NCBI GenBank assembly: GCA_965261125.1
Contig: CBDHCS010000003.1
Span: 460,801-524,800, forward strand
DNA from: Candidatus Poribacteria bacterium
GTDB taxonomy: Bacteria; Poribacteria; WGA-4E; WGA-3G
Direction of reading: 5' to 3'
Length of the DNA: 64,000 nucleotides
This document shows positions 11,472 to 60,638 of this stretch, piece by piece; the stretch's first letter is position 1, and each line of letters opens with the position of its first letter. Position numbers and translations under genes: made by a program. Under the pieces are notes generated by a model, which had not been told where the DNA came from, made no database searches, and saw only the letters and a program-made list of their open reading frames with translations.

Positions 11472-12716
11472 TTATAGTTCAGCACGCGTCATAAAAATCG
11501 CATAGATAGCAGAAGTCCGCACCAGATCAGGAATATACACACGTTCATTTATGGCATGTCCACCTTCACCCCGCGGCCCGTAGCCAATTCCCGGCAAACC
11601 TGTGTGGACAAAATAGTGCAGGTCAGTAAACCCCGCAGTACTCTTAAATTTCGGTTGATTGAAACGGACAGTCCGCACTGCATCAGCAAAACCTTGCGCT
11701 AAAGGGGAATCAGTATCCGTTAAACACGGTTCAATTCGTAAAATTGCTCGGACCTCTGCTTTTAAATCTGGATAATATTCACACGCACCCGAAATTGCTT
11801 CTCGTAAGTCAAGTTCTGCAAACTCAAGTTTTTCATTGGGTGTAATCCGCCTGTCAATTGAGAAGGTGAGATGTGCTGGAACAGTGTTGACCTTATCCCC
11901 TTCAGTGCCACGGAACGTTCCACCAATGTTCATAGTCGGATAACGTTCACTGTCATCCAGCAGTTTAAACGCGCGTTCTGGTGACTTCAAATTCCGTTTT
12001 ACCCGTTGCAACGCTAATACAAGTTCTGCTGTTTTCTCAAAGGCGTTTACTCCTTTATCTGGTTGAGACCCATGTGCCGCTTTTCCGTGAACGTCAATTT
12101 CCAGCCAAAGCACCCCGTTATGTCCGTTGCCGATGTTCATTTCCGAACCCCCTTCACAGTTGACAACATAGTCAGCGTTGACCAACTCCTTCTCTACAAT
12201 ATATCCAGCGCCTAACTGCCCACCTGTCTCCTCATCACAAGTGAACGAGCACTCAATGTTAAACAACGGTTCAGCACCACTCTCCTGAACAGCCTGAATT
12301 GCAAAAAGCAGTGCAGCGATGGCATCCTTCATATCATCCGCTCCACGCCCATAAAGCCATTCCCCTTCAATCTTTCCGCTGAACGGATCATCGAAACGCC
12401 ACTCCCCCGAAACCGGCACGACATCGTAATGGGCGTTAAAATGTACCGTCTTTTCTGCCCCAACATCCCAGCGTGCAATCAGGTTCAGCCGTGGATGGCT
12501 TGAGGCATTTGAAATAATTTGTTCAGCACGCTGTTTGGGAACTTTTACGATTTTTGTTTTCATTCCCAACGCCTGGCATTTTGCTTCAAGTAGTTCAACA
12601 ATCTTAGTATAATTCTCACCTGGTGGATTGACGGTTGGAATTCTGACGAGTTCTTGCAGCAACCCACACAACGAATCTTGGTTGTCCTTAATATAGGTTT
12701 GTACGGACATTATCAT
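11472..12716 (-). CDS. M20-family metallopeptidase/deacylase (ArgE/DapE-like)
   Basis: 414 aa with an HxD...D...EE...H metal-ligand layout (HYDVV, GADDMK, CDEETGG). Confidence 0.8.
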   Translation of the reverse strand: MIMSVQTYIKDNQDSLCGLLQELVRIPTVNPPGENYTKIVELLEAKCQALGMKTKIVKVPKQRAEQIISNASSHPRLNLIARWDVGAEKTVHFNAHYDVVPVSGEWRFDDPFSGKIEGEWLYGRGADDMKDAIAALLFAIQAVQESGAEPLFNIECSFTCDEETGGQLGAGYIVEKELVNADYVVNCEGGSEMNIGNGHNGVLWLEIDVHGKAAHGSQPDKGVNAFEKTAELVLALQRVKRNLKSPERAFKLLDDSERYPTMNIGGTFRGTEGDKVNTVPAHLTFSIDRRITPNEKLEFAELDLREAISGACEYYPDLKAEVRAILRIEPCLTDTDSPLAQGFADAVRTVRFNQPKFKSTAGFTDLHYFVHTGLPGIGYGPRGEGGHAINERVYIPDLVRTSAIYAIFMTRAEL

Positions 12717-21427: not shown

Positions 21428-23423
21428 TTATTGATCACGGACCAATTTTGTGAGATCCCACAACAGAATTGTGCCATCAGAACTCACGCTTGCAAGCGTT
21501 TCACCATCTGGAGAAAACACAACAGCGTTGACGCTCTGTGTATGTCCGATAAGGGTTTGAAGACGTTCCCTCGTTTGTGCACTCCAGAGGTGGACAGCGT
21601 TGTCGTTTTCAGTCCCACTTGCGAGTGTTTCCCCATTTGGAGAATATGCCAAAGAAGTTACTTGTCCTGCTTCTTCAATTGGCGGAAGCATCAAATCGCC
21701 TGTATTAGCGTTCCATAATCGGATAGTGCCATCCGCACTTCCACTGGCAAGTGTTTTGCTATCTGGGGAATACACTACATCAGTAACAGACTCTTCATGT
21801 CCTGTGAGTGCCCTAAGATGCGTGCGGGTGTCTATGTACCAAAGTTGAATTGTTTTGTCATGGCTGCCACTTGCAAGTGAAGTGCCATCAGGTGAAAATG
21901 CCACTGCAGTGACTCTGTCCGTATGTTCGGTAAAGGTTGCCAAACGTTCACCAACCGGATATAATTCACCTGAACGAATTTCCCATAAACAGACCATATT
22001 GTCTTCACTACCGTCTTTCTTGACAGCATTTCTGGGGCCTCTTCCTCCCACCTCCGCTGGCAAGCGTCCTGCCATCGGGCGAAAACGCTACGGAAGAAAC
22101 CTGATACTTATATCCGTCAGTAACCCTGTCCTTATGCCCCTTAAAACTGCCGAGGAACCGTCCGCTCTGCACGTCCCACAAACGCGCTTTCATAGAAGTA
22201 CCACCAGTTGCAAGTAGCTTTGCATCGGAAGAATATGCAATTGAATGGACATCACAACTCGGTTCTTTGATCGTTTTTAGATGTTCACCCGTCTGTGGAT
22301 TCCACCATTGGATTTTGGACTCACCCCCACAAGCAAGTGTGTTACCATCAACGGAATATGCCACAGAATAAATTTTTGAGGAAGCATGTCCGGCTATCGT
22401 TTTTATTAAATCACCAGTAGCAGCATCCCAGAACCCTATCGTGCCATCGTCACTTCCACTTGCAATTGTCTTTTCATCAGGGGAATATGTCACAGAATTG
22501 ACCGTGTCAGCATGCCCCATGCTTTTCAAAAGTTTTGCCATGCTAACATCCCAAATATCAACTCTGTCCCAATAACTACCTGAAATGAGAGTGCGTCCAT
22601 CAGATGAAAACTCCATAGACTCAAAATTACCTATCCACTCTGTGTGGCTTTTTAGGAGTTTGGCTGTTTCTACATCCCAAAATTGAAGTGGACCTTCACC
22701 ACCGCAAGCCAAAATCTTGCAATCATGTGAAACTGAGACAGCATTGAAATTCTCTTCAATTAGAACATCTTTTAAATGATCACCGGTTTTTGCATCCCAG
22801 TACTCGATATAGAATTCGTATTTGTCCCAATTTCCGATTGTGAGGATCATCGTTCCATCAGGAGAATATGTCATCGCCAACACTGGAGAAGCATCAGACT
22901 TTATAGTTTTCAGAAGCTCTCCGGTTTGCGCGTCCCAAATATGTGTATTCCACAGATCACAGTGACTGGCAAGTGTTTCCCCAGTAGGGCTAAACGCAAT
23001 TAAATTAATACCGTCTTTACGGCTACTGTTGTCTTTCTGTCCAATACAGGTCGCTTTATGTTTACCTGTACTTGTGTCCCACAATCGAATAGTGTAATCT
23101 TCACTACCCGTGGCTAAAGTTTTACCATCAGGACTGAAGGCTATTGACTTAACCGGGGCTGTGTGTCCTGTAAGCAGGTCAAGTACTTCTCCTGTTTGAA
23201 CATCATAAATCCAGATACCGATAGAAGTCGCGACTGCCAGCCGTTTGCCATCAGGAAAATATTTTATCTGATGTATTCTGCCTTTTCCGAGTCGTGCTTT
23301 GACACCTGCAGGTAAGCCTAAGCGGGTATGGTTTTGAGAGAAAGCGGTTGCAGACAAAAAAATTAACAGATAGAATGTAGAGATTAGCGGTCCAAAAGTC
23401 AGAACGATGTTTAATATTTTCAT
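21428..23423 (-). pseudogene. WD40-repeat protein with N-terminal signal/TM, disrupted by a 43-nt frameshifting insertion (~22010-22052)
   Basis: Two overlapping ORFs (22008-23477 and 21428-22075) rejoin into an in-frame LASGSEDNMVCLW repeat if 43 nt are removed. An AAGGAG ribosome-binding site precedes ATG 23423 (MKILNIV...). Confidence 0.65.
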
Positions 23424-23477
23424 ACAATTTAAACTCCTTTGAAGATTGTGTCTGTTGTCTATATTATGCAATGGCAC

Positions 23478-45988: not shown

Positions 45989-47215
45989 TCAGATTTTGGG
46001 TTGGATAAATCTGGTTGACTTCTAAGGAATATCACCAGTGGGGATACCATCAACGGCACTATCACTAACCAATCCAGCACAATAGGTAATCCGTACTTAT
46101 CAGCCAAAGCACCGACAATTAAATTTAATAATCCACCCACTCCCCACGATGCACCCATCATAAAACTTGATGCGATATTCTCATGCCCGCGCAGCATCAT
46201 TTGTGCTAAGATAATGTTAATTGTTACTGAGCTCGTAAGGGCCACGTTACCTAAAAAAAGAAGCACAAGGAAAGCGGCGCCGTTGGTATGAAGTGAGGCG
46301 TAGAGCAGTGGCGGTGCAACGACAAGTGAAATCAGCAGCAAGACCAGCGTATTCACCCTGCTTAGAAACCAACCATTTCCCAGGATACCCACTGAACCGG
46401 CAAAGATATAGAGCGCAAGAACTAATGACCGCTTTTGGTCAGAATAGTCCAGATCATCAAGGTAAATAGAGAGAAAATTTTCTAATCCGGCAATTGTAAG
46501 TGTTCGGAGCGATGCAATAACAAATAGCATAATGAGAGGCAAGAGGTAAGGTCGAGCGACTCTCCAAAAAGATTCACGTATGGAATTGGCATTATCTGAT
46601 AATACGCGTGCAGATGCGGTTAAATCAAGTTCGTGTTCAAATTTCAATACAAACGGAATAAATAGTGCGACAAGGACCCCTGGTATCATCTCCCAGACTA
46701 AATGGCTTAACCCAAAACGGTATGGAATGTATAAGAGGACTAGCGGCCCAAGGGCGCGACCAATATTGCCACCTGTGAGAAAAATAGAAATACCCATTCC
46801 TCTTGTTTCTGCGGCAAGTGCGCCAGCATAAGTCGTCGCTTGTGGATGAAATGCGGCAACACCTGTACCTCCAATGGCTAACAACAGGTACAATATAAAT
46901 GGTGAAGGTGCCACTACCACTAGACTTAATCCCACTGCAGTCAAAGCAACACCGAATGTTAGGAAATGGACTGTCCGCACCCTATCCGAAAGCCAACCGA
47001 AGAGTATCTGTCCGAGAGAACTGAAAATGTAAAAAAGTGCAATAAGGATACCTGCAAAACTGTTCTTTGCAGTTGCTGGGGCTAATCTGCTTGTCAACTT
47101 TGGAAGAATATGCGATAAGAGTGTTGCGTAAGAATCAAGGACGGTATGTGTGAATGTGAGAAAGAAAAACTGGTTACGTGTGGATGAATTCGAAGGGTCC
47201 AAGTCATTTTTCATA
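45985..47215 (-). CDS. MFS transporter
   Basis: Multiple TM helices. The likely start is the ATG at ~47215 (MKNDLDPS...), not the ORF-track extension to 47379. Confidence 0.75.
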
Positions 47216-47449
47216 GTATTGAAAATTACAATTATTAAATATTTTATAGGCACGCCAGTGAAATTAGCCGTTGGTATTCGGGCAATGTCTACATAATTCA
47301 GATTATTCTGTAGTTTCAGTTGTGATTCTTCTGTATTAACTCTGCACATCTGATTAGTCAAACTGTATACTAATACCAAATCAACTTAATTAGAGATTCC
47401 TAAGAGAGTCAGTATTGCGAGGTACAGAAACCTCACAATACAAGTCAGG

Positions 47450-47914
47450 TTAATTTGGCATTAGATCAATTCTCGCGTTTAAATGTGCATATCCTCCTGA
47501 ATCTTTAGAGATTTCCTGAGAGATATTAGTCACTTTTACATCAACTTCGTCACCCTGAGTGAGATTATCGGATATTTTTGAAGTATGGATCATTCCTGTA
47601 ATCCCTTCTTCTATCTCAACGAAAACTCCAAACTTTTGCAATTTTGTAACATAACCGGTAACTATTGTGCCGATAGGGTAATTCTGTTCTAATTGATTAA
47701 AGTTTTTAGAACTTAGCGTTATCTCATTTCTTTCACAATTAATATCAATAACTACTACTTCAACAATATCTCCAATTGAAAATACTTCTGCGGGATGATT
47801 TACGCTTTTCCAATCCAATTCGGATCTGTGAATGAATCCATCAACGTCATCGTTGAGGACAATAATCGCACCAGAATCAGTGATCCTAGTGATTTTCCCT
47901 TTGACTTTTTGCAA
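47450..47914 (-). CDS. tandem S1 RNA-binding domain protein
   Basis: 154 aa with two S1-like OB segments (GKITRITDSGAIIVL...GFIHRSEL and GTIVTGYVTKLQKFGVFVEIEEGITGMIH). Confidence 0.7.
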   Translation of the reverse strand: MQKVKGKITRITDSGAIIVLNDDVDGFIHRSELDWKSVNHPAEVFSIGDIVEVVVIDINCERNEITLSSKNFNQLEQNYPIGTIVTGYVTKLQKFGVFVEIEEGITGMIHTSKISDNLTQGDEVDVKVTNISQEISKDSGGYAHLNARIDLMPN

Positions 47915-47985
47915 AACCTCAAAGATATCGTATAACTCAAGTTCTGATTCTTCTGATGTAAAAGATTCGTTATTAAGATCGTCTT

Positions 47986-49038
47986 CTAAATCAATGTTAG
48001 TAACACCAGTCTCTTGCTAACTGAAACAACTTCGGATGAATGATTTAATGTTTCGCTATTGTTACTGATAAATTCATCGCGAATAGTTACTACTTTGTGT
48101 TTTTCTTTATGGGCATCGATCCACTCAAGAACCTCGACCATGTGGTATAAGCAGGTCCTGGTGTATTCTGGATCAATATCCTCTGTGTCAGTATGTACAA
48201 CTAGGTTTCGAGATTCACCTATCAGTCCTATTCTACTCCGAACATCCCTGTTGGGATCGAAATGGGAAGCAAAGGCACATTCCCATCTTGCTCTGAATAA
48301 GTGGGGGACACTCACAATATCTATGTCAGATTCGGTTTTGACTCTCTTTTCTCCGTTTTTAATTGGAGTATTCTTTAGTTTATTCGCCATAAAACTTCGT
48401 ATCGCAGGAAAATAGTTCTGATAGATAGCCAAATAAAGTACGTGTTGGTTGGGAAATTTTACCGTATTGATATCTGAAGAATCCGATTTATGTTTCAGTG
48501 CATCAGGTTTATCAACATTCGATCCGCTGGTAGATTCCAAGTCCGAGGTTTTCCCTTGATCAACGTGCCCATTACCTTGATGATTTTCACGTAGTCTCAA
48601 TGATTCGGAGATTTCCTTTACATCCGATAGAAGATCATCTTCACGCGGCTGTTCCCTCACTACTTTGAAGCCGAAATGTTCTCCTATAACTGACAAAGTG
48701 TCATAGTCTAAACGTTGATCAACTTCTGCTGGCACATTTAATTCCCTTAAAGACTTAATCAAATCTATTAGTTGTAATTTAAGTAATGATGCTAGTGAAC
48801 CGATTGTAGATCCTTCTAAAATCTGCAACGGAGCTTCGGACGATTTCTCTCTTTTTGATGCGATTTTAACTTCTTTTTCTTGTTTAGGGGCTAAATTGGA
48901 TTCAACTGACATAATTGTTTCTGGATCTAAAGTAGACATGTGGTTTTTTACGTTAACGCCTGAGTCGATTAATTTCTTAATGAGTATTTTACTACTTAAT
49001 CCATGTTTTTTTGCCAATTCATAAACTCTCATATTCAT
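47986..49038 (-). CDS. protein with two IF2-N-type domains and C-terminal HEPN-like (Rx4H) domain
   Basis: An AAGGAG ribosome-binding site precedes the ATG. Residues 3-40 (VYELAKKHGLSSKILIKKLIDSGVNVKNHMSTLD) match the IF2_N signature. A second IF2 N2-like segment follows (TIGSLASLL...IKSLRELNVPAEVDQRLDYDTLSVIGEHFGFKV). The C-terminus has ESRNLVVHT, an R-x4-H HEPN motif. Confidence 0.6.
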   Translation of the reverse strand: MNMRVYELAKKHGLSSKILIKKLIDSGVNVKNHMSTLDPETIMSVESNLAPKQEKEVKIASKREKSSEAPLQILEGSTIGSLASLLKLQLIDLIKSLRELNVPAEVDQRLDYDTLSVIGEHFGFKVVREQPREDDLLSDVKEISESLRLRENHQGNGHVDQGKTSDLESTSGSNVDKPDALKHKSDSSDINTVKFPNQHVLYLAIYQNYFPAIRSFMANKLKNTPIKNGEKRVKTESDIDIVSVPHLFRARWECAFASHFDPNRDVRSRIGLIGESRNLVVHTDTEDIDPEYTRTCLYHMVEVLEWIDAHKEKHKVVTIRDEFISNNSETLNHSSEVVSVSKRLVLLTLI

Positions 49039-49209
49039 GTATGTTCTCCTTTAGTTTATTTTGTTAGGACCTATGCAATTCCCTGGGATGTGCGGTTAGG
49101 AAACCGCACCTACCGCTTGATAATAGGGGTAATTCCGTGCTATGTGCAAGTCCTGTTGTCTCGGTTTACTTGTTACTTGTATATTTTAGTTTTGTTCAAT
49201 GATCAGAAT

Positions 49210-49467
49210 TTATTTAAAGATAGCAACGACAACAGAGATGATCAGTGCCCCGATGGCACATGCGGTGACTATCCAGCTGCGCATCCCTGCAATCGCACTT
49301 TGCTTGCCTTTGAGTTCTGATATACCGTTCTCAACATCACGAAGTCTTGTATCCATCCCATCTAAACGTTGATTGACTTCTGTAAAACGTTGATTGACTT
49401 CTGCAAAGTCTGCTTTGACTTGATCAAAACCGTCTTTCATCAGTTGATAGAGTTCTTCATTTGTCAT
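49210..49467 (-). CDS. small tail-anchored coiled-coil membrane protein (XhlA-like)
   Basis: 85 aa with a strong AAGGAGG ribosome-binding site. The N-terminus is a heptad coiled coil and the C-terminus a single TM (WIVTACAIGALIISVVVAIF). Confidence 0.6.
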   Translation of the reverse strand: MTNEELYQLMKDGFDQVKADFAEVNQRFTEVNQRLDGMDTRLRDVENGISELKGKQSAIAGMRSWIVTACAIGALIISVVVAIFK

Positions 49468-49572
49468 TTTTCCCTCCTTTGGCTTCTCACCAGTGTTGTC
49501 GGTCGAGATTCAATTCTCGCTGCGACAAGGTTGTTGTAGGTGAGAGTCCCACTCAGTAATTGATAACATATT

Positions 49573-51324
49573 TTACCTTTTTTTAGAGGCTTTGTCAAGA
49601 GCTGTATAAGGTGTTTTCTTCTTTTGAGCCTTCCTTCTTGCGCACCAATACGTAAACTGCCGATAATAATAACCTATATTTTTCGGAATGTTCTCAAATT
49701 CTGGCACGAATTGACACATCCCACCCAGAACAACCAACTGCTCCTTCGCACGCGTCATTGCTACATAAAAGACGCGGCGTTCTTCTTCAAGGACCGTATC
49801 CTTCCGCGGAAACCTACGATCCAACGTGTTGTGAATAAGGATAACCCTCTCCCATTCACGTCCCTTTGCTTTGTGTATTGTTGTCACCTCTACTGGAGGA
49901 GATTCGGGCACACTGGATAATATCTCATCAATCCGATCAACCTCGTAGTTCGTTCTGACAAGGATTGCGGTCTCAACATTCTCGGATATTTTTTCTAATA
50001 GATGTTTTTTGATGGTTTCAGGCGTTGTCTCTATAATGTCTATCTCATTTTTTATCGGATTATAGGAACGTAGGTTTTTCCGAATCCGAGGCTTGTTTCG
50101 TTCAATTATGGCTCTTGCATGCTCAACAATTGTTGACGTGGAACGATAATTACGGGTTATCTCATATTGAACGACATCTGATCGGTTGGAAAATTTCTGC
50201 ATAATTTGGGAATCACCGCCGCGAAAGCTATAAATCGCTTGGTCATCGTCTCCGACCGTAAAAAGATTCTCTGATAACTGCGAAATCAACCGAAAGTCAA
50301 TCGGTGCAATGTCTTGAAATTCGTCAACAAGCACATAAGGGTATCTGTCTTGGTAGGTCTGGCGGATATCTGGATGAGTTTCTAACAGATTTGCGGCGTA
50401 GATAATCATATCCTCAAAATCAACAGCATTCGCTGCTGATTTTTGGTCTTCATATTTCTTTGCAAATTCGCGTGCAACAGGATTTTGTAATGTGTTTGGA
50501 TCAAAAAGCCCGGCTTTAACCTGTCGCTTTGCTCGCATAACAATCTCCTTTATATCGTTGAAACGTTCACGGAGATTTTCAAAATCGGGGTCTCTATCCA
50601 GATGATCAGTGTATTGGACATTAAAGTGTTGGCAGAACATCTCAAGCATAAGTTGATTGCTAAATTGTTCTCGCATCGGGTCTGCTCGGTTGAACACTTC
50701 GCTGCAGTTTTTGTAATATCTAATCCAATGTGCTTCGCGTCTGTTCGCCTCTCTTCCTTCAACCTGTTCCAACACCTTAAAAGTGAACTGCGATTCTCCT
50801 TCAGCTCGAATGGCTTGACGGAGTCGATCATTTGATGAGTGGTCAAAATGTTCACGCCTACGCCGCTCTGGATTTGTTGACTGTCCTATATAACATTTGC
50901 CCGTCTGTTTGTTCTGAATTTTATAGATGGAAACAGTCGTTTTTGACGCTGTCTGCTCAATTTGTTTTCTTTCTTCTGTAATAATTCGATTGATTTCGCC
51001 TGACCAAATTTCGGGACGATGTCCAAATCCTGCACGCTTGTAGTTTGCGGTGACAATGTCTTTCCCAAAAGCGTGGAGCGTACGGATGACTGGCAAAGTC
51101 TCTTTTGACTTTAGCCCAAGGATAATCCGATTTTCCATCTCTTCAACTGCTTTTCTATTGAATGCTATGGCGAGGATTTTTGAGGGAGGAATATTGTGGG
51201 TTCGAATGAGGTTGAGAATACGTGCTGTTACGACTCTCGTTTTACCGCTCCCTGGTCCAGCGACAACGATGGCAGGTCCAGTAAAATGGTTGACAGCTTT
51301 CTCTTGGTTTTTGTCAAGATTCAT
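49573..51324 (-). CDS. compact UvrD-like SF1 helicase with inserted GIY-YIG nuclease domain
   Basis: Helicase motif I is VVAGPGSGKT, motif Ia AIAFNRKA, motif II VLVDEFQD and motif III VGDDDQAIYSFRGG, with TTIHKAKGREWERVIL and YVAMTRAKEQL as motifs V and VI. Between Ia and II lies SIYKIQNKQTGKCYIGQSTN...RRRREH...E...N, a GIY-YIG nuclease signature. Confidence 0.75.
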   Translation of the reverse strand: MNLDKNQEKAVNHFTGPAIVVAGPGSGKTRVVTARILNLIRTHNIPPSKILAIAFNRKAVEEMENRIILGLKSKETLPVIRTLHAFGKDIVTANYKRAGFGHRPEIWSGEINRIITEERKQIEQTASKTTVSIYKIQNKQTGKCYIGQSTNPERRRREHFDHSSNDRLRQAIRAEGESQFTFKVLEQVEGREANRREAHWIRYYKNCSEVFNRADPMREQFSNQLMLEMFCQHFNVQYTDHLDRDPDFENLRERFNDIKEIVMRAKRQVKAGLFDPNTLQNPVAREFAKKYEDQKSAANAVDFEDMIIYAANLLETHPDIRQTYQDRYPYVLVDEFQDIAPIDFRLISQLSENLFTVGDDDQAIYSFRGGDSQIMQKFSNRSDVVQYEITRNYRSTSTIVEHARAIIERNKPRIRKNLRSYNPIKNEIDIIETTPETIKKHLLEKISENVETAILVRTNYEVDRIDEILSSVPESPPVEVTTIHKAKGREWERVILIHNTLDRRFPRKDTVLEEERRVFYVAMTRAKEQLVVLGGMCQFVPEFENIPKNIGYYYRQFTYWCARRKAQKKKTPYTALDKASKKR

Positions 51325-51512
51325 ATTTGATCGTAGGAAAGAATATTTTTGCTTAGTATATCATTAGAGAGCTGTGAAGTCAAAACGTTTATAACTTGAA
51401 TAAAATGGCAGTTGACTTCAACAAACCCACGTGATATAATATTTGAATATAAATTTAGGAAAACCGCAAACATTAATTACACCGGTGATAGTTTGCCTGA
51501 GTAAAACATTTT

Positions 51513-52442
51513 ATGAATTACATCTTTACTTGTATTCTCATCATAACTTCTATCTTCATGTGTATACCTGTTGCAGCCGATAGCACAGACATTCATGAGA
51601 ACGCAGGAACACGCGCGATGACATTTCTCAAGATCGGTGTCGGTGCGAAAGCAATGGGAATGGGAGAGTCCCAAGTTGCTGCAACAGACGATCTTTATGC
51701 TTCATACTGGAATCCAGCCGGTCTCACAAGGCTACAAAAACCGCAACTTGCTCTGATGCATAACGAATGGTTTGCTGGAATCAATCATGAGTTTGTAGGA
51801 TTTGCCATTCCGATTGGAAAAAATACTGTTGGTGCAAGTGCTAATTTCTTATCCTTTGGTGAATTGCAAGGACGCGATCAAGAAGGAAATGAAACAACCC
51901 TTTTTCGGCCTTACGATTTAGCAGTGACACTTTCCTATGCTCGCAGCTTTAGTACGAGGCTCGCTTTCGGGGTAAATGCCAAACTTCTACGAGAACAGAT
52001 TGCTGAAGATAGCGGACGTGGGATTGCATTCGATCTCGGTGGGTTATATGCTTTTGCTAACGTTCCCCTTTCACTCGGTTTTAACGCACAACATATCGGT
52101 CCTCGAGTGCAGTACGTTGAGGACGCGTTTGAACTCCCTTTCACGTTCAGATTAGGCACAGCATATCTATTATGGAACGATGCTGCTGTCCTAACAATGG
52201 ATTTCATTCGTCCCACCGACAACGATAATTCTATCGGGATAGGAGGGGCTTACACGATAGGTAACATTTTGCAACTGCGGGCAGGTTATATATATAAACT
52301 CGGGGGCAACGATTTAGGGGCAACTTCAGGGCTTAGAGGCGGTTTTGGACTGGCTCTCCGAAAATTTCAAATTGATTACGCACTCGTACCATTCGGTGAT
52401 TTGGGACTGACACACCGATTTTCTTTGATTGCCACTTTTTAG
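51513..52442 (+). CDS. FadL/PorV-like outer-membrane beta-barrel protein (paralog of 44909-45988)
   Basis: A signal peptide is followed by the GTRAMTFLKIGVGAKAMGMGESQVAATDDLYASYWNPAGL motif. The protein ends in C-terminal Phe. Confidence 0.6.
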   Translation: MNYIFTCILIITSIFMCIPVAADSTDIHENAGTRAMTFLKIGVGAKAMGMGESQVAATDDLYASYWNPAGLTRLQKPQLALMHNEWFAGINHEFVGFAIPIGKNTVGASANFLSFGELQGRDQEGNETTLFRPYDLAVTLSYARSFSTRLAFGVNAKLLREQIAEDSGRGIAFDLGGLYAFANVPLSLGFNAQHIGPRVQYVEDAFELPFTFRLGTAYLLWNDAAVLTMDFIRPTDNDNSIGIGGAYTIGNILQLRAGYIYKLGGNDLGATSGLRGGFGLALRKFQIDYALVPFGDLGLTHRFSLIATF

Positions 52443-52461
52443 GAATAGACCCGTTTTCGGG

Positions 52462-53178
52462 CTATCGTTGTTTAGCGGCATGAATAAACGCCTCAAATAA
52501 CTTTTCTGCATGTCGACGAAGTTCTGGCTTTTTAAGCATCCGTTCAGGATGATATTGCACACCTATCACAAACCGCTTCGATGGGTTTTCTACTGCCTCA
52601 ATGATGCCATCCTCTGAGTACGCTGTCACAACAAACTCTTCGCCAATCTCGTCTACTGCTTGATGATGGGCTGAGTTCACTAAGGTTTGATGCTCATTTA
52701 CAATTTCGCTTAGCCGGCTATACGGTTTAATCTCAATTGGATGCCGAGAATCCTCTCCAGATTCATCTACCTTATGGTTAAGTGCCTCTCTTGGATATAC
52801 TGCTTCTATATCTTGATAGAGACTTCCGCCCATTGCAACACTCATCACCTGGATACCACGGCAAATTCCGAAAACAGGAATATTGGCTTGCAAAGCTTTT
52901 TGACACAACCGTAGTTCTAAAGCGTCACGAGATCTGCTCACATTATTAACTTCAGGATGCCGTTTCTGAAAAAAAAGAGTCGAATCAATGTCGCCACCGC
53001 CTGGCAATAGAAGCCCATCAATTTCCTCAAGATATTTCGGAATAGATGCCAAATGTTCAGGAATCGATTTTTCCAGTGACGCGAATATGATCGGGTCTCC
53101 TCCAAAATTTACAATTGCATCGGTATAGTTTTCCATGCGGACATTTTTTTTGCAAGTGATGCCGATTTTCAATGACAC
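52462..53178 (-). CDS. class I glutamine amidotransferase, peptidase C26 / gamma-glutamyl-GABA hydrolase-like
   Basis: 238 aa with GGGDID, a catalytic Cys in GICRGIQ and HHQ. Confidence 0.8.
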   Translation of the reverse strand: MSLKIGITCKKNVRMENYTDAIVNFGGDPIIFASLEKSIPEHLASIPKYLEEIDGLLLPGGGDIDSTLFFQKRHPEVNNVSRSRDALELRLCQKALQANIPVFGICRGIQVMSVAMGGSLYQDIEAVYPREALNHKVDESGEDSRHPIEIKPYSRLSEIVNEHQTLVNSAHHQAVDEIGEEFVVTAYSEDGIIEAVENPSKRFVIGVQYHPERMLKKPELRRHAEKLFEAFIHAAKQR

Positions 53179-53540: not shown

Positions 53541-53798
53541 CATAGCAACTTGGGTTATATTATAAGGCTATAGGACAGAATATATTTCCGCGATAACTGA
53601 TTTTTTAACTTGCATCTATTTACGAAGTATGTTAAACTAATGGCAATTGTCAAAGTTGAGTCAATTTTTTAGCAAATCTGCCAAAAATCAAGAATTATTG
53701 AATATATTTGCTAACATATCCGGTAAATTCGCAAATTAGTTGGAAATGTGGTAAACTCTATCGTAAAGTCACCCTTTTTGTCTGAGGAGACGTTCAAA

Positions 53799-55698
53799 AT
53801 GAACGATAAAGAGAAATTTAACAACGAAAAAGAAAAGTTCGGTGAGACTGGCGGAAACCGTTATGATCATAAATCTTTTGAAGACGAGGATGAGTTGGAA
53901 CTGGAGGAGGATATTGAGGATGAGACAAATTCCAACTACTCCCAGCGATTTATTAACTCGCACCAGAACCATTATGATCGTGGATCTTTTGAGGATGAGG
54001 ATGAGTTGGAACTGGAGGAGGATATTGAAGATGAGGCAAGTTCTGGCTATTCCTTGCGGTTAATCCATCATATTATCTCAGAAACACCCGTGGAAGACCG
54101 TAGACGGCGTTTGTTAATTGAATTACGCCGCTCAATCATCAATGATGAAGGCGAATTTCGGCAGAGAGTTCGAGCCATTGAACAGGAAGCAGTCCGCATA
54201 CATACTGAGATGGCAGAACAAATTGATAAACTGACCGCGCCAGCAAATCGCATCGGAACACTCCTCGCGATCCCCGAAGACGACACAGCACGCGTCACTG
54301 TTGCCGGATCTGAATACTATGCTAATATTGACCCGCAATTAGAGACAGAAAACCTTAAAAAAGGAATGAGTGTGCTTCTAAACGAGGCTTTTGTCGTTGT
54401 TGGTGAACTCGGCTATACTGAATCAGGACCAATTGCCAAAATTGCCGATGTACTTCCCGATGGCAGGCTTCGCGTTGGGTCTGAACCGAGTCTCCAATCT
54501 GTTATTATTGAACGCGCTACAGATTTGGCAGATGTCAAACTAAAGTCCGGTGACGAAGTCCGCCTTGATGCCAATTTAAAGGTTGCCATTGAACGAATCG
54601 CCTCAAAAGAGCAGAAAGATTATGCACTTGAAGCAGTACCGCAAATTCCATGGACAAAAGTTGGCGGACTTGACGAAACTATTCAGCGGATTAAGGATAC
54701 TATTGAACAACCGATTCTGCACCCTGAACTCTTCAAGCGGTTTCAATATACTGTACCAAAAGGATTCCTTCTCCACGGTCCCCCCCGGTTGTGGCAAAAC
54801 GCTTATCGGGAAAGCAACCGCTTATAACTTAACAGAACGTCTCAAAACAGAAACAGGTGAGGAGATTGAAGGTACTTTCCTTCATATTAAAGGTCCTGAA
54901 ATACTCAATATGTGGCTCGGTGAGTCGGAGCGGAAAGTCAGAGAAATCTTTCAGATGGCACGCGAGAAGCGCGATGAGGGTAAACTTGCATTTGTCTTTA
55001 TTGACGAAGCAGAATCCATTTTGGGAACTCGCCGTGCTATGCGCTCACATAGCATCTCTAATACGCTGGTACCGATGTTCTGCGCAGAAATGGATGGAAT
55101 TGAACCCTTGCAAGAGGTCGTTATCATTTTAGCAACTAATCGTCCCGACTTAATTGACCCAGCTATTCTCCGACCAGGACGAATTGATAGAAAAATTAAA
55201 GTGACACGCCCAAATAAAGAGGCTGCCAAAGATATTTTCGGTATCTATCTAACACCGGACCTCCCCATTGAAATGGAAGATAGTGAGACTACAGACAAAG
55301 AGGTCGTTGATGACTTGATAACACAAGTCATTGATGAAATGTTTCGCGAATCAACAGAAAACCGATTCCTTGAAGTTGCGCTTCGCAGCGGTAGGCGCGA
55401 CATTCTCTACCGCGGTCATCTCTGTAGCGGTGCAATCATTGAGTCTATTGTTCAGAGAGCGAAAGAATCTGCTATGAAACGTGCCATCGCAGCCCCCGAA
55501 ACAGAGACAGGCATTTCGTTAGACGATCTATTAGGCGCACTCAATTCAGAATATAGCGAAAACGACATTTTTCCGCCGACCGAGGCTACTGAGGATTGGC
55601 TTAAACTTCTTGACTATGATCCCGTGAATGTTGTTAAAGTTACGCCTATTCAAACAGAAAAGAGAGAGTCCCAAAAAACACCAAGTCCGGTGATTTAA
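53799..55698 (+). CDS. arc: proteasome-associated AAA ATPase ARC/Mpa, interrupted by +1 frameshift in a C7 tract (54780-54786)
   Basis: A GAGGAG ribosome-binding site precedes ATG 53799. The first ORF ends ...LLHGPPRLWQ. The overlapping second frame continues (GPP)GCGKTLIGKA (Walker A) and then Walker B FVFIDEAES, which reconstitutes one AAA protein. The position 5' of dop-pup-prcBA-pafA fits arc. Confidence 0.8.
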
Positions 55699-55755
55699 CG
55701 CTTAACTTCCGTCGGAGATCTAGCACATACTGCCGAAACTATAGAAGACGTAATA

Positions 55756-57273
55756 ATGCATAGACTTTTTGGAATCGAAACTGAATACGGCATTACACTC
55801 GAAAGTGCTGAACAAATTGATCCGGTCAAGGAATCGATTGAACTGATAAAGAATTATCGGCGCGACCCGTTCTTACCACTCTGGGACTACAACGGCGAAG
55901 ACCCATTTCGAGATGAACGCGGTTTCCGAGCAAAGCACCTCAATAACCATCCTGATGAAGTGGAGGAAGAAAAACGCGACAAAGAGCGATTTGCCAAAGA
56001 ACCGGGGCGTTCTTTCCGAGAGATCAAAAGTGATCGTATCCTTATTAATGGTGCACGGCTTTACAATGACCACGCGCATCCAGAATATTCGACACCGGAG
56101 TGTCAAGACCTGTTTGATCTCGTCGCACACGATAAAGCTGGAGAGAGAATCCTCCAGAAATGTGCTGAAAGACGTAGCCAAGAACTTGGTGAACGTGTCA
56201 TCTTATATAAAAACAATACTGATTTCTACGGACATAGTTACGGATGCCACGATAATTATCTTATGGCTCGCGAAGTGCCTTTTGATTACCTTAAAACTTG
56301 CATTCTCCCGTTTTTCGTTACACGACAAATTTTTGCTGGAGCTGGCAAAATAGGTATTGAAACCGAAGCAGGACTCGCGACACCTGGACATTTTCAACTC
56401 ACACAACGTTCCGACTTCTTTCACGTTGAAGCAAGTGTGGATACGATGCACAAACGGCCTATCGTTAACACGCGAGACGAACCGCATGCTGACCCCGCTA
56501 CATATCGCCGACTTCACGGTATCGTCGGAGACGCAAACATGTCTGAATACGCAACGGCACTCAAGATCGGGACAACTGCTCTTGTTATTGACCTAATTGA
56601 ACAGCGGCTTGTTCCTACGGCATTCGCAATTGCCAATCCTATTGATACCATCAAAACAATTTCGCATGACCAGACGTACCGATGGATGCTACAGAAAGTT
56701 GATGGGAAAATGATCAGTGCAATTGACCATCAACGTGAATATCTTGCGCTTGCACAAAAACATCTTGCACATCAAAATAGTGACACCGATTGGGTCTTGA
56801 CACAGTGGGAGGAGACGCTCGACGCACTTGAAAATGACCCCATGACACTTATAGATCGTCTCGATTGGGTTGCCAAAAAATGGTTGTTGGAAACCTTTGT
56901 TGAATCAGAAGATATTGAATGGGACGATCCTTGGTTGCAAAGCATTGATTTAGAGTACCATAACATCGATCTTGAAGAGGGGTTATTTTACGGATTACAG
57001 ATGCAACGGGTTGTAACGGATGAACAGATTCGGACCGCTATACAGACGCCACCATTGAACACGCGCGCTTATTTCCGTGGCACATCCCTTAACAGATTTG
57101 AAGATGCTATAAAAACTGTCCAATGGGACAGTATTACTTTTGATATTAAAGGCAAACCAGTTACCGTTAACATGAATTCGCTTGCAAACCCTGAACTTGC
57201 ACGAAAATATAATGAAGCTCTTGACCAATCACCAAACCTCCAAACCCTTGTAGAAAAACTTGGTTTACACTAA
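55756..57273 (+). CDS. dop: Pup deamidase/depupylase Dop (PafA/Dop family)
   Basis: 505 aa. The N-terminus MHRLFGIETEYG is the carboxylate-amine ligase signature of the Dop/PafA family. The gene sits immediately upstream of pup, as in actinobacteria, and is longer than its paralog at 59178-60638. Confidence 0.75.
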   Translation: MHRLFGIETEYGITLESAEQIDPVKESIELIKNYRRDPFLPLWDYNGEDPFRDERGFRAKHLNNHPDEVEEEKRDKERFAKEPGRSFREIKSDRILINGARLYNDHAHPEYSTPECQDLFDLVAHDKAGERILQKCAERRSQELGERVILYKNNTDFYGHSYGCHDNYLMAREVPFDYLKTCILPFFVTRQIFAGAGKIGIETEAGLATPGHFQLTQRSDFFHVEASVDTMHKRPIVNTRDEPHADPATYRRLHGIVGDANMSEYATALKIGTTALVIDLIEQRLVPTAFAIANPIDTIKTISHDQTYRWMLQKVDGKMISAIDHQREYLALAQKHLAHQNSDTDWVLTQWEETLDALENDPMTLIDRLDWVAKKWLLETFVESEDIEWDDPWLQSIDLEYHNIDLEEGLFYGLQMQRVVTDEQIRTAIQTPPLNTRAYFRGTSLNRFEDAIKTVQWDSITFDIKGKPVTVNMNSLANPELARKYNEALDQSPNLQTLVEKLGLH

Positions 57274-57338
57274 CCCAGCTTGTTAAAGGGTTATAATCCA
57301 AAAACTGCTTTCGTGAAGCAATTAAGGAGATTTTTCCG

Positions 57339-57536
57339 ATGAGAGACAAGATTGTTTATTTTCCTGAACGCAAACAGAGACCCGTAAAACCGATGGAACC
57401 CGGCGACGGCGGAGACGATAATAACGCTCCCAAACGTCCCGACGTTAATAGACCGGACACACAAGAACTCCTCAAACGTATGCGCCGTGTTGACAAAGAT
57501 CAATCCCGGCGGTATCGTCAGAGAACGGGGGAATAA
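57339..57536 (+). CDS. pup: prokaryotic ubiquitin-like protein Pup (non-canonical)
   Basis: 65-aa ORF filling the dop-prcB gap, with an AAGGAG ribosome-binding site. Its TAA stop overlaps the prcB ATG (TAATG). The N-terminal half is disordered and acidic. The protein ends ...YRQRTGE, a terminal Glu, but TGE rather than canonical GG(Q/E). Confidence 0.55.
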   Translation: MRDKIVYFPERKQRPVKPMEPGDGGDDNNAPKRPDVNRPDTQELLKRMRRVDKDQSRRYRQRTGE

Positions 57537-58366
57537 TGTACCATAAAGGCGACTTTCTTAGCCTTTTAAAAAACGCAGACACCTTGCAAGTTGATGGTGA
57601 AACGCCTACAAAAGCATTAATTCATGGTGCTTTTCAGGTGCCATCGGATGAACAAGTATCCCATGGTACCAAGGTAGAGATACCGGAAGCTACGACGGTT
57701 GTTGCCATGCGTTACAAAGAAGGTATTATTATTGCAGGTGACCGGCGTGCCACTGCTGGTACTGCTGTTGTTCATGACCGTGCTGAGAAAGTCCTTCCTA
57801 TTGACACACATTCTGTTCTTGCCATATCTGGGGCACCAGCGATGGCTTATGAAATAGCGCGTGTCTTAAAACATTCATTCCAATATTTTCGGCGCAGCCA
57901 ACTCCAAGAACTCAGTGTAGAAGGAAAACTGCGAACGCTTTCACGGCTTATTCGTGATAATCTACCCATGGCACTGCAGGGTATCGGTGCGGTTATCCCG
58001 ATCTTTGCTTTGTACGTGCCGCAAACCGACGAATCGGAAAATGGCGGTAAAATTTTCTTCTACGATGCACTCGGTGCACACTTTGAGAACGTGGATTTTG
58101 CAACTACTGGTTCCGGTTCAGTTTGGATACGTGGGGTGTTACGTTACCTTGACAGATGGGGCGAAACCCGTTTGGAAAAGATGGATCAACAACAAGCAAC
58201 CGTTACTATTTTAAGGCTACTTGACACCGCAAGTGAATATGATGCCGCTACCAGTGGATATAACGCAAAAGCCGAAATTTTCCCCACTCTCAAAACTATT
58301 ACGCGGCAAGGGATAGAAACACTCACTGACCAATACTTATCGGAATGTTATACGGAGGTTACTTGA
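57536..58366 (+). CDS. prcB: 20S proteasome beta subunit with propeptide
   Basis: 276 aa. After the propeptide comes ...EA|TTVVAMRYKEGIIIAGDRRATAG, which places catalytic Thr1 at TTVVA. Confidence 0.88.
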   Translation: MYHKGDFLSLLKNADTLQVDGETPTKALIHGAFQVPSDEQVSHGTKVEIPEATTVVAMRYKEGIIIAGDRRATAGTAVVHDRAEKVLPIDTHSVLAISGAPAMAYEIARVLKHSFQYFRRSQLQELSVEGKLRTLSRLIRDNLPMALQGIGAVIPIFALYVPQTDESENGGKIFFYDALGAHFENVDFATTGSGSVWIRGVLRYLDRWGETRLEKMDQQQATVTILRLLDTASEYDAATSGYNAKAEIFPTLKTITRQGIETLTDQYLSECYTEVT

Positions 58367-59136
58367 TGCGCGATCTGCCATATCGTTGGATTGAAGCAAT
58401 TCAGGACCGACGTGATTACATAGAAGACCAACTCAGGCTCGGAAGTCCCGTCGTTGGACTACCTTACGCACAAGGCAGCCTCCTATTGACCGTGAGTAAA
58501 GGTGCACAGAAAATTTTTGAAGTCCATGATAGAATTGCACTCTCCGCTATCGGACATCCCGCTGATATTGAACGTCTCCGAATGCTTGTGACCGATACTG
58601 CAAGCGTTCAAGCCTTTCAGAGCGCGACTGAAGATGTAAACTTGCACAGACTAACCCACTATGTTTTAGCGCATACCTTCAAACAAGCATTTGAAGCAAT
58701 AGTCGGTGAGGCATACATTATAAAAATGCTCCTTGTTGAAATCGGGAATGGTGATGCCGCAACGCAATTTACGCATATTAATTATGATGGTAACGTTAAA
58801 GTCCAACACGAATCATCAGTAATTGGCGGCACCACAGAAATCGAAAACGCTATGCAAGATTATCTCACTGCGGCACAAACCGATGCAAAACCCGATCTTC
58901 CCACTGCACTTCAGTTAGCACTTAAAACTTGGGCAGTCGGTAGAGGGTTAAGCCAACGTTTTGAGGATGCGGATGACAATACCGAAGTGACGGATGAGCA
59001 GATAGACGAAGTCATCAAAACGGAATTAGAAGATGGAGATATTGAGGTGGGTGTGCTTGATTCTACCTTATCTGGAGATACCAAATTCCGGATCCTGACT
59101 CAAGACGAAATTCAGGCAGCGCGCAAAACTACATAA
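58365..59136 (+). CDS. prcA: 20S proteasome alpha subunit
   Basis: The prcB stop and the ATG overlap (ATGA). The start MRDLPYRWIEA resembles the actinobacterial PrcA N-terminus. The ORF track begins 20 nt earlier. Confidence 0.8.
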
Positions 59137-59177
59137 TAACTTCTCATCAAACTGACAGCCGATTAAGGAACAAACCT

Positions 59178-60638
59178 GTGACACAGAGAATAATGGGAAT
59201 AGAAACTGAATTTGGTTGCATGATTCAGTCTCAAGCGATGCAGACACAACGGATCAAAGTATCACCTGAAGGTGTTGCCGCGCGCGTTAGAGACTATGTC
59301 TTCAAAACCCTTGAACTCGGTATTCCCGATCTTCACTATCGTGATTGGGGTGAACCCCCTGGCAACGGTGGTTTCCTCTTCAACGGTGGTAGACTCTATA
59401 TTGACATGGGACACCTTGAATATGCTACGCCGGAATGTGCTAATCTCTTTGACCTCATCGCTTATGATAAAGCCATTGAACACGTCATCACAGCAATTTT
59501 ACATGACACCGGTCTTGCAGCACACGTTGCCTTCTACAAAAACAATATAGACCATTTCACAGGGGCAACTTTCGGATGCCATGAGAACTTTCAGGCACGC
59601 CGCGATATCCCGTTCTACAAAATTATTATCCCAACCTTGCTCCCTTTCTTTGTGACACGACAGATATATGCTGGTGCGGGGAGAGTCGGAGGGTATGATG
59701 ACATCCTCGAATTTGGAGATGGGCAATACAGTGTTGATGATTTTCTCGGATATCAAATCTCCCAACGGGCTGACCACATCGTCACTGAAATCTATGAATG
59801 GATTCAGTTTAGCCGAGCAATTATCAATACTCGCGACGAACCGCTTAGTGATTATACGAAATACCGCAGACTCCATCTCCTCGTCGGAGACTCTAACATG
59901 TCCGAGTATGCGACTGCACTCAAGGTCGGAACAACTGCACTTATCCTTGATGCTATTGAGCAGCACTATGAAATTCATGGCGTAAAACTTCCGATGCCGA
60001 ATCTTGAGCTCGCAGATCCTATCGCTGCTATCAGACATATCTCAAGAGACACTTCTCTTAAATGGGAGGTTGATTTGCAGAACGGTAGCACTATTTCTGC
60101 CATTGATATTCAACGCGAATACCTCAACTTTGTACGGAACGTGTTAACGGAACTTGATGAAACTGCTGAGTGGGTTCTCACAGAATGGGAAACTGTGCTC
60201 AATGACCTTGAAGCAGATTGGACACGCCTTACAACAAGGCTTGATTGGACAGCAAAAAAGTGGTTTCTCGATGCCTTAATCGCCGAAGAGGCGTTGACTT
60301 GGGATGATCCATGGCTAAAAAGTCTTGATTTAGAGTATCACAATATTGACCCTGAAAGCGGTATCTTCTACGCGTTGCAAAGCGAAGGGTGTATGAGACG
60401 GGTCATTACAGACCAACAAATTAGCTACGCTATTAGCAATGCACCTATTGATACGCGTGCAAGGGTTCGCGGATACCTCATGCGAAATCTAAAAAAACAG
60501 AAAATGCCGTGTATTGTTGACTGGCACCACGTTTATGCGGGCCAAACCGAATGTTTTGAGATGAAAGAACCTCTTGACACAAGTATACCTAAAGCACAAA
60601 AATGGCTCCAAATCCTTAAACTTCGGCAGAGAATGTAG
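59178..60638 (+). CDS. pafA: Pup--protein ligase PafA
   Basis: The GTG start gives MTQRIMGIETEFG, a good match to the PafA N-terminus. The protein is 486 aa and lies downstream of prcBA. Confidence 0.8.
   Translation: MTQRIMGIETEFGCMIQSQAMQTQRIKVSPEGVAARVRDYVFKTLELGIPDLHYRDWGEPPGNGGFLFNGGRLYIDMGHLEYATPECANLFDLIAYDKAIEHVITAILHDTGLAAHVAFYKNNIDHFTGATFGCHENFQARRDIPFYKIIIPTLLPFFVTRQIYAGAGRVGGYDDILEFGDGQYSVDDFLGYQISQRADHIVTEIYEWIQFSRAIINTRDEPLSDYTKYRRLHLLVGDSNMSEYATALKVGTTALILDAIEQHYEIHGVKLPMPNLELADPIAAIRHISRDTSLKWEVDLQNGSTISAIDIQREYLNFVRNVLTELDETAEWVLTEWETVLNDLEADWTRLTTRLDWTAKKWFLDALIAEEALTWDDPWLKSLDLEYHNIDPESGIFYALQSEGCMRRVITDQQISYAISNAPIDTRARVRGYLMRNLKKQKMPCIVDWHHVYAGQTECFEMKEPLDTSIPKAQKWLQILKLRQRM

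Follow-up and report, generated by a model that had tools for sequence, protein, structure and literature searches.

The window analysed here, a 64-kb stretch of DNA from the genome of a sponge-symbiont Poribacteria, contains on its minus strand a locus of four co-directional open reading frames (ORFs): a helicase-nuclease (g1), a small membrane protein (g2), a protein joining copies of the IF2 N-terminal domain to a HEPN domain (g3) and a tandem-S1 protein (g4). The original prediction had taken these ORFs, which are present at exactly the coordinates it gave, for the four genes of an uncharacterised defence or abortive-infection system. Comparison with the corresponding loci of other genomes (labelled L001 and so on) and with homologous proteins (labelled P0002 and so on) revealed instead a locus of three genes, one of them split, in which g3 and g4 are a single gene cut by a frameshift. 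The flanking genes are of housekeeping type, as had been proposed, and include an MFS transporter, a PorV-like outer-membrane protein (OMP), a peptidase C26 and a Pup-proteasome cluster. Each gene of the locus has promoter-like and ribosome-binding-site signals of its own. The four ORFs lie as follows (coordinates without a locus label refer to the window).

49573-51324, minus strand: g1, helicase-nuclease ORF of 583 amino acids (aa)
49210-49467, minus strand: g2, ORF of 85 aa
47986-49038, minus strand: g3, IF2N-HEPN ORF of 350 aa
47450-47914, minus strand: g4, tandem-S1 ORF of 154 aa

The common origin of g3 and g4 follows from two homologous sequences. The 536-aa protein P0002 spans both frames, matching the g3 frame up to its residue 334 and the g4 frame from its residue 341, past the annotated start of g4, and an intact 536-aa ORF of the same architecture occupies the same position in a 5.96-Mb Poribacteria genome (L057, 10001-11611). 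The domains of the ancestral product are distributed over the window as listed here.

48484-49038, minus strand: IF2 N-terminal mimic (g3 aa 1-185), two IF2_N domains plus a linker with a relic P-loop, from Pfam
48547-48576, minus strand: degenerate G1 P-loop relic GNGHVDQGKT, aligned with IMGHVDHGKT of true IF2
48031-48471, minus strand: Swt1-like HEPN domain (g3 aa 190-336), from transitive profile matches and fold
48193-48216, minus strand: R-x4-H motif ESRNLVVH (R277, H282), from the conserved-residue alignment
48013-48025, minus strand: frame switch in the HEPN-S1 linker, splitting the ancestral ORF into g3 and g4
47450-48016, minus strand: module of two S1 domains (annotated g4 47450-47914), its frame open and homologous to P0002 upstream to about 48016

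The frame switch falls in a poorly conserved linker without a homopolymer, and both halves of the gene are still open in the window, with no further stops. Programmed frameshifting at the junction was considered and rejected, since inspection of the sequence revealed no X XXY YYZ slippery heptamer. The first canonical start of g4 is a TTG at 47914, with a GAGG only 2 nt upstream, and the window copy may at best yield an IF2N-HEPN protein and, from a start of its own, an S1S1 protein; in the worst case, it may be a decaying pseudogene. The identification of g4 as a tandem S1 RNA-binding protein is borne out by the Pfam S1 model, which matches two stretches (106 bits), and the S1 module is 61-68% identical to the C-terminus of P0002. 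As reconstructed from these alignments, the ancestral accessory gene is a single ORF of ~520-540 aa encoding two IF2_N domains with a relic P-loop linker, a Swt1-like HEPN domain and two S1 domains. For annotation purposes, the "IF2-like" and "S1" ORFs found here should thus be recorded as halves of one accessory gene.

The IF2-derived part of g3 belongs to the IF2_N family (PF04760), which it matches in two stretches with 70.3 bits (cutoff 25.3). Its alignment with true poribacterial IF2 (e.g. P0005) covers residues 1-185, from both IF2_N domains through the G1 motif, at 48-53% identity, and downstream of the relic P-loop the g3 sequence runs on into the HEPN domain. The GTPase domain, domain II and the C-terminal tRNA-binding domains are all absent, leaving a protein that does not qualify as a functional IF2, and the NCBIfam IF-2 model TIGR00487 reaches only 45.5 bits against a cutoff of 424. 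The missing GTPase and C-terminal domains, the degenerate P-loop and the low IF-2 score identify g3 as a mimic of IF2 and not an IF2. By homology, this part is an old partial duplicate of infB, and the odd GNGHVDQGK string common to g3 and P0002 indicates that the fusion arose once. True infB is absent from the 64-kb window, and tblastn searches of phage and plasmid sequences with g3 returned matches only to true infB. In the full-length AlphaFold model the domains are arranged as beads on a string, in the order IF2N, linker, IF2N, a disordered linker that holds the relic, HEPN, linker, S1 and S1; this model (predicted template modelling score 0.30) contains no confident inter-domain packing and no hint of autoinhibition. 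The N-terminal region helps IF2 to bind ribosomal subunits. In Escherichia coli, the N1 domain of IF2 also binds NusA's C-terminal region on RNA polymerase (PMC12297416).

The domain that follows the IF2 mimic has the all-alpha helical-bundle fold of HEPN proteins and a motif of the R-x4-6-H type, with the R and H of E-x-R-N/D-x-V-x-H invariant in five close homologues. Among 1.84 billion cluster representatives, a profile built on this domain identified 337 relatives. Among the 82 relatives scanned, the H is invariant, the R is at least 90% conserved and 52 match the Swt1-like HEPN model PF18731 (best E 1e-12); the homologues P0003 and P0004 reach 21 bits with this model, against a cutoff of 27.5. 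By these matches of its relatives and by its fold, the C-terminal domain of g3 can be assigned transitively to the Swt1-like HEPN family PF18731, and the earlier description of g3 as two IF2_N domains followed by a HEPN-like R-x4-H domain holds. HEPN domains are RNases in which the R-x4-H residues build the active site, typically across a dimer, and the bacterial Swt1/Abi2-clade HEPNs have been described as catalytically active and as occurring within restriction-modification or defence contexts (Anantharaman et al., 2013, PMC3710099). Members of the wider family mostly carry the HEPN domain at the N-terminus, ahead of assorted modules (e.g. Mrr_N, DUF499, HTH, LRR); S1 domains were found in six of the 82 scanned relatives and a copy of the IF2 N-terminus in one of them. 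A k-mer-limited search of a 5.8-billion-protein database returned the IF2N-HEPN architecture in only two 90%-identity clusters, and a scan of JGI metagenomes with the HEPN alignment identified no relatives. The combination of IF2 N-terminus, HEPN and S1 in one protein is novel; its function can be proposed from sequence, as set out below.

The first gene of the locus, g1, has a different history. It matches Pfam UvrD-helicase PF00580 (E 8e-63, 213 bits) and UvrD_C PF13361 (85 bits), and the location of all superfamily 1 (SF1) motifs and of the 1A and 2A cores places it among the SF1A helicases. A nuclease domain is embedded in this helicase.

50689-50949, minus strand: GIY-YIG catalytic domain (g1 aa 126-212), from Pfam PF01541, PHROG and TIGR01453

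The Pfam match to this domain (aa 133-206; 37.6 bits, cutoff 22.6) lies between motif I/Ia at aa 25-60 and motif II (DEFQD) at aa 334-338, so that Pfam matches and motif positions agree with the original reading of g1 as a UvrD-like SF1 helicase with a GIY-YIG nuclease between motifs Ia and II. The nuclease part is closest to phage homing endonucleases (PHROG, E 2e-19), scoring 53.7 bits with the group I intron endonuclease model TIGR01453 (cutoff 56). Its residues Y..YIG..R..EH..E..N are kept in 41 orthologues and five paralogues, which identifies it as a GIY-YIG nuclease, and from these sequences the domain is apparently active. The best PDB matches of g1 are Deinococcus radiodurans UvrD, PcrA and Rep. 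Aligned with solved UvrD, g1 aa 68-280 take the place of ~96 residues around domain 1B, and aa 423-471 (~49 aa) stand for aa 320-559, ~240 residues that include domain 2B. The lack of 1B and 2B counterparts in this alignment indicates a compact motor without 2B, with the nuclease at the 1B position. With 184-220 bits, g1 falls short of the PcrA, UvrD and Rep equivalog cutoffs (911-1144 bits) and does not qualify as their orthologue.

Helicase-GIY-YIG proteins of this architecture form hundreds of protein clusters at 70% identity or above. Orthologues of g1 with 61-90% identity are present in 42 species-representative Poribacteria genomes, and all 41 that were extracted are intact ORFs of 564-595 aa. 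Identity to the window for helicase, MFS, OMP and PhyH is 87, 76, 91 and 86% in L004, and 66, 66, 66 and 81% in L001. The presence in 42 species genomes, the intact ORFs, the kept catalytic residues and the tracking of MFS, OMP and PhyH identity mark the helicase as a core, syntenic gene, and g1 is a vertically inherited, phylum-wide helicase-nuclease of the Poribacteria. A phylum-wide helicase with an embedded, conserved GIY-YIG domain was not found in the literature searched. In tblastn searches of phages and plasmids, the GIY-YIG and helicase parts matched separate phage genes and never a single gene, no phage record combining the two, and scans of viral contigs with g1, g2 and g3 returned no relatives except for a 29-residue GIY-YIG match. 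In a purQ-linked clade (L048-L052, L058), the region 5' of the helicase varies as well, containing groups of small ORFs that lack annotation, in some cases together with an HNH protein; in L058, a PemK toxin lies upstream of the helicase.

On its 3' side, the helicase is followed by a slot of variable content, to which g2 and the split gene both belong.

47193-49630, not assigned to a strand: variable slot, running from within the last ~19 helicase codons (left edge) to a point shortly upstream of the MFS gene (right edge)

Homology blocks between the window and L004 stop at 49631 and restart at 47192, with only ~100 bp lying between them in L004, and in ~20 genomes the slot is empty, the MFS gene following ~50-100 bp after the helicase. 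Its contents vary among the 44 loci compared. In the window, the slot holds g2 and the split IF2N-HEPN-S1S1 gene. The closest relative (L003) carries a 100% identical g2 and, of the split gene, the IF2N part plus a piece of the second S1 domain, with the HEPN domain and the first S1 deleted; L015 has g2 only, and L057 has the intact IF2N-HEPN-S1S1 gene without g2. The slots of L001 (7742-13288) and L002 (8332-11083) contain an ABC ATPase resembling NsnB of the Menshen system (E 8e-47) together with a HEPN(-S1S1) gene, to which L001 adds a 126-aa protein, a ParE-family toxin and an HNH protein, and in L009 the slot is occupied by an unrelated glycosidase-like gene. The S1 part of the L001 HEPN protein appears degenerate, and an S1 match lies in another frame at 11708-11914.

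A further kind of cargo consists of giant proteins that fuse a paralogue of the helicase-GIY-YIG protein to GrpE, a Hfq-like region and three S1 domains (1338-1424 aa in L005, L016, L024 and L040). Including L025, whose protein lacks the S1 domains, these giant proteins measure 1150-1424 aa.

L016, 11812-15903: giant protein
L040, 13096-17253: giant protein
L024, 13107-17381: giant protein
L005, 11814-15830: giant protein
L025, 12019-15471: giant protein

Their helicase part is 40-50% identical to g1 and the GrpE domain scores 64-85 bits; the Hfq-like match is sub-threshold, with 23-24 bits in L025 and L040 and none in L016. A search with hidden Markov models identified no divergent HEPN domain in the giant paralogues or in other slot cargo. 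Neither these fusions nor the variable slot were found in the literature searched.

Two comparisons bear on the dynamics of the slot. Between the window and L057 the flanks are 79-84% identical, against 52% for IF2N, 41% for HEPN and 68% for S1S1; domains so much less identical than their flanks indicate a much higher rate of evolution for the gene. In the comparison of the window with L003, a segment comprising g2, the spacer and the first g3 codons (approximately window 48983-49581 and L003 11440-12040) has 97-99% nucleotide identity, and beyond these ~600 bp identity is ~89% in the helicase and ~82% in the MFS gene, which points to a recently exchanged or converted segment. As read from these genomes, the slot is recombination-prone, and the HEPN gene is an accessory gene that has been lost repeatedly.

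The other occupant of the slot in the window, g2, starts with heptad repeats and ends in a hydrophobic helix of 20 residues, both recognised by reading the sequence.

49216-49275, minus strand: transmembrane helix of g2, from sequence reading
49366-49407, minus strand: 21-nt (7-aa) tandem direct repeat in g2, FAEVNQR / FTEVNQR (repeat families D1/D2)
49570-49598, minus strand: sigma-70-like promoter match TTGACA-17-TAAAAT (11/12), within the helicase 3' tail and upstream of g2

The promoter entry is a consensus match only, the total number of such matches not exceeding the shuffled expectation. Of the earlier description of g2 as a tail-anchored, XhlA/holin-like coiled-coil membrane protein, the tail-anchored coiled-coil membrane protein stands; the holin-like part is not supported, as the similarity to XhlA PF10779 is sub-threshold (14 bits, cutoff 34.7; PHROG "hemolysin", E 2e-4) and no lysis gene lies nearby. 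The g2 family comprises 124 clusters (P0284-P0403 among them), and the few with a source name are all from Poribacteria. Its members are 54-139 aa long, mostly 71-99 aa, with lengths rising in steps of ~7 aa (71, 78, 85, 92 and 99; 75, 82 and 89). These steps match the internal repeat and suggest that repeat copy number varies within the family. A g2 gene lies 3' of the helicase in L003, L015, L030, L034, L042, L048-L054 and L058 (L055 has no upstream sequence), and at 6-7 of the 42 helicase loci of species genomes; the genome of L021 has a copy elsewhere. It follows the helicase in several clades with differing downstream genes, and in view of this recurrence, no pairing that involves the HEPN gene is as well conserved as that of the helicase with g2.

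The association between the helicase and the HEPN cargo is looser. In none of the 42 species-representative genomes does a HEPN gene adjoin the helicase. HEPN-S1 genes do lie just 3' of it in the window, L001, L002, L057 and L058, in two differing downstream contexts: in L058 the order is helicase, g2, an insertion sequence (IS) and HEPN-S1, and the downstream gene is DUF6785 and not MFS. No such helicase lies within 8 kb of the HEPN-S1 genes of L059-L062 and L065, whose neighbours are DUF6785 and MNT/HepT modules, and in L063 and L064 the HEPN-S1 gene has UvrD-RNase T helicase paralogues around it. Across these contexts there is no constant partner gene, which fits a stand-alone protein. HEPN-S1 genes would accordingly be mobile cargo, inserted preferentially at the 3' ends of genes for UvrD-family helicases and tied to them by no obligate partnership, though a looser positional or functional link may exist.

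Two of these contexts have features of their own. In L063 (7635-17254; L064 has the same layout), the 417-aa HEPN-S1 gene and a UvrD-RNase T (DEDD exonuclease) helicase paralogue converge. After the HEPN-S1 gene comes a 90-aa fragment sharing 98% identity with the C-terminal end of the adjacent intact 1043-aa helicase, and IS elements are interspersed. This layout looks like cargo inserted at the 3' end of a helicase gene with duplication of that end. In two of the loci without a helicase nearby (L059 9898-10176, L061 7366-7668), the HEPN-S1 gene is adjoined by a conserved small protein of 92-100 aa (MDTKDNQFPQFGLCLNNEGY...) with no Pfam match, downstream in one locus and upstream in the other; it is absent from the window and is a possible partner or antitoxin candidate for that HEPN-S1 subgroup.

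Searches for known defence systems agreed with the original prediction that no named system matches the locus. PADLOC returned generic GajB or RT-helicase matches for g1, a marginal PbeC match for g2 (E 0.017), marginal Csx21 matches for g4 (E ~0.01) and no match for g3. The GajB matches of g1 are not accompanied by a Gabija system, as window 47000-52500 contains no ATPase or TOPRIM gene and hence no GajA partner, and such matches alone should not make g1 a defence gene in annotation. Gabija was also considered for the AAA_15/21 ATPase beside the helicase in L001 and L002, and rejected: the best match of this protein is NsnB, no TOPRIM was detected, and the ATPase is absent from the window. 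Nor is the locus a Menshen system (NsnABC, with NsnA a ParB-DUF262 protein, NsnB an ATPase and NsnC the effector), the NsnB-like ATPase occurring only in the L001 and L002 slots. Nhi, like g1, combines a helicase and a nuclease. Unlike UvrD, PcrA and Rep, and unlike GajB and Nhi, g1 lacks 2B and carries a homing-endonuclease-type GIY-YIG domain at the 1B position, and unlike typical defence genes it is conserved and syntenic across a whole phylum.

Among HEPN proteins, the nearest counterpart of the slot gene is the Swt1-like/Abi2 clade (PF18731; the "Ava_2192" group of PMC3710099), with which it shares the all-helical fold and the invariant R-x4-H (E-x-R-N/D-x-V-x-H); the wider family likewise occurs in variable neighbourhoods rich in restriction-modification or toxin genes. 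The gene described here differs from that family in its two C-terminal S1 domains and N-terminal IF2 copy, and in lacking a DUF499 ATPase, Mrr_N or a restriction-modification partner. It differs from AbiF/AbiD (Abi2) proteins, including PbAbiF with its non-coding RNA (PDB 8vz6), in its domain additions, and no upstream repeat or non-coding RNA antitoxin was detected here. The locus contains no nucleotidyltransferase ORF either, and so conforms neither to a HEPN-MNT module nor to a type III AbiF-like one. Rfam searches of the spacers returned only a chance mir-29 match and no non-coding RNA, type III antitoxin or riboswitch, and the g2-g3 spacer has no significant fold (z -1.0) and no tandem repeats, the 21-nt repeat lying inside g2. 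With IF2 (infB) the slot gene shares its first 185 residues; unlike IF2 it has no G domain, and its P-loop is predicted to be disordered. As for g2, it resembles XhlA-type lysis proteins in its small size, N-terminal coiled coil and C-terminal transmembrane helix, and a few members of its family have a precomputed PF10779 match, yet it stands apart from them in having no holin or endolysin nearby and in belonging to an apparently Poribacteria-only, chromosomal family with no viral relatives found.

Taken together, the data make it fairly probable that the locus is a composite of a core helicase and an accessory slot gene, the latter encoding a HEPN RNase that evolves fast, works alone, is guided by its S1 domains and targets the machinery of translation or transcription, and that is perhaps decaying in this genome. 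In such a protein, the two S1 domains would bind single-stranded RNA, and the IF2 N-terminal copy would dock where that of IF2 does, at the 30S subunit or initiation complex, or at NusA on transcribing RNA polymerase. The HEPN domain would presumably dimerise, forming the R-x4-H active site as HEPN RNases generally do, and would cut mRNA, tRNA or rRNA at the docking site, shutting down translation. The intact protein might then be a stand-alone effector, of toxin or abortive-infection type. Rarity, fast divergence (41-52% against ~80% in the flanks), repeated loss and the company of toxin, HNH and ATPase cargo fit a gene of biological conflict, and the defence logic of the original prediction survives in this reduced form, as what looks like an accessory gene of conflict type that combines HEPN with RNA-binding and translation-factor modules in a variable slot. 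What the sequences establish is the anatomy, homology and distribution of the gene and its frameshift; RNase activity, targeting, toxicity and any defence role are predictions. Should this function be confirmed, a HEPN RNase steered by a stolen piece of IF2 would represent a new means of directing a toxin to starting ribosomes or nascent transcripts, and a natural experiment on the binding partners of the poorly understood IF2 N-terminal domain.

Several points weigh against this interpretation. The host is uncultured, and RNase activity is predicted from sequence. The g3 protein itself matches no HEPN Pfam model (E <= 1), its family membership being transitive. Docking partners of IF2_N are known from E. 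coli only and are said not to be conserved (PMC12297416), and no antitoxin, immunity gene or non-coding RNA was found that would explain tolerance of an active RNase. The g3/g4 frameshift could be an assembly error, as the window also has a split Mpa gene and probably a split WD40 gene. Finally, five of the ~9 HEPN-S1 contexts adjoin this helicase, which may mean more than position.

This last point leads to a slightly amended version of the original proposal, one anti-phage or abortive-infection system in which the helicase-GIY-YIG protein would be a sensor or DNA effector, g2 a membrane effector and the IF2N-HEPN-S1S1 protein an RNA effector, possibly with the helicase as a constant core to which swappable downstream effector modules are added. 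In its favour are the HEPN-S1 genes directly 3' of the helicase in five loci, one of which (L058) differs in its flank and repeats the helicase, g2, HEPN-S1 order; the fusion of a helicase-GIY-YIG paralogue to GrpE, Hfq-like and three S1 regions in the same slot, a Rosetta-stone hint; the HEPN-S1 gene among UvrD-RNase T paralogues in L063 and L064; and the other defence-type cargo (NsnB-like ATPase, ParE, HNH). The proposal had depended on synteny of the four genes in related genomes, and this synteny is lacking. The helicase occurs without the HEPN gene in 42 of 42 species-representative genomes, g2 is present at only 6-7 of these loci and MFS comes directly next in ~20 genomes, so that its components do not co-occur as those of a multigene defence system would; the helicase is as conserved and syntenic as its housekeeping neighbours, and HEPN-S1 genes occur without it in L059-L062 and L065. 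Each gene has its own promoter-like and ribosome-binding-site signals, no PADLOC system model matches, and all the co-locations, coming from one phylum, may reflect descent plus a hotspot. The split gene, the core helicase without HEPN, the variable slot and the HEPN-S1 relatives far from any helicase argue against a co-evolving four-gene unit with a helicase sensor, and we regard a single system as unlikely.

The remaining explanations concern the slot gene itself. It might be a functionless chimera, an accidental partial infB duplication onto a HEPN-S1 gene that is now decaying, with the slot inert in this genome. The frameshift of the window copy, a relic P-loop that is useless without a G domain, the loss of the HEPN domain in L003 and of the whole gene in L015, and the other split genes of the window (Mpa and probably WD40) are all compatible with this account. 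The intact 536-aa ORF keeps the same architecture, the R, the H and the GNGHVDQGK string despite identities of 52% in IF2N and 41% in HEPN, which argues for long-term selection on the fusion, and both halves in the window are open without further stops; we therefore judge a functionless chimera quite unlikely. A housekeeping role in RNA processing or quality control at the ribosome, for a protein paralogous to translation factors and unrelated to conflict, would suit the derivation of IF2_N and S1 domains from core translation proteins and the housekeeping flanks, but is very hard to reconcile with a gene whose architecture the k-mer-limited search returned in just two 90%-identity clusters and which is absent at 42 of 42 species-representative helicase loci, evolves fast and is frameshifted or deleted in close relatives, and its probability is very low. 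A more speculative reading, by analogy, starts from the fact that S1 and Hfq are host factors of Q-beta, and GrpE a host factor of lambda replication. The slot might encode host-factor bait, that is, nucleases fused to copies of host proteins that phages hijack or modify (the IF2 N-terminus, S1-type domains, Hfq, GrpE), as a form of decoy immunity in which a phage factor engaging the IF2N/S1 decoy would switch on the nuclease, either the HEPN RNase or the GIY-YIG helicase paralogue. We consider this improbable; if true, it would constitute a new guard or decoy immunity made from duplicated pieces of the translation and chaperone machinery.

Some minor features of the window complete the description. 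The g2-g3 spacer contains a perfect 8-bp hairpin (GTGCGGTT-tcct-AACCGCAC, 49090-49109, minus strand) that has no T-tract and no evident role and is kept in L003, and its GCGGTTT core also aligns upstream of the HEPN genes in L001 and L002. The Pup-proteasome cluster (53748-60638, plus strand) is complete, with the Mpa/ARC ATPase, Dop, PrcB, a probable PrcA and PafA. Its Mpa/ARC gene consists of two ORFs broken exactly at a C7 homopolymer within the Walker A codons (54780-54790), a split due either to an indel in the assembly or to a slippage mutation. At 21428-23477 on the minus strand, two WD40-repeat ORFs of 215 and 489 aa overlap and are probably one gene split near 22040-22075, which would make it the third split gene of the 64-kb window.

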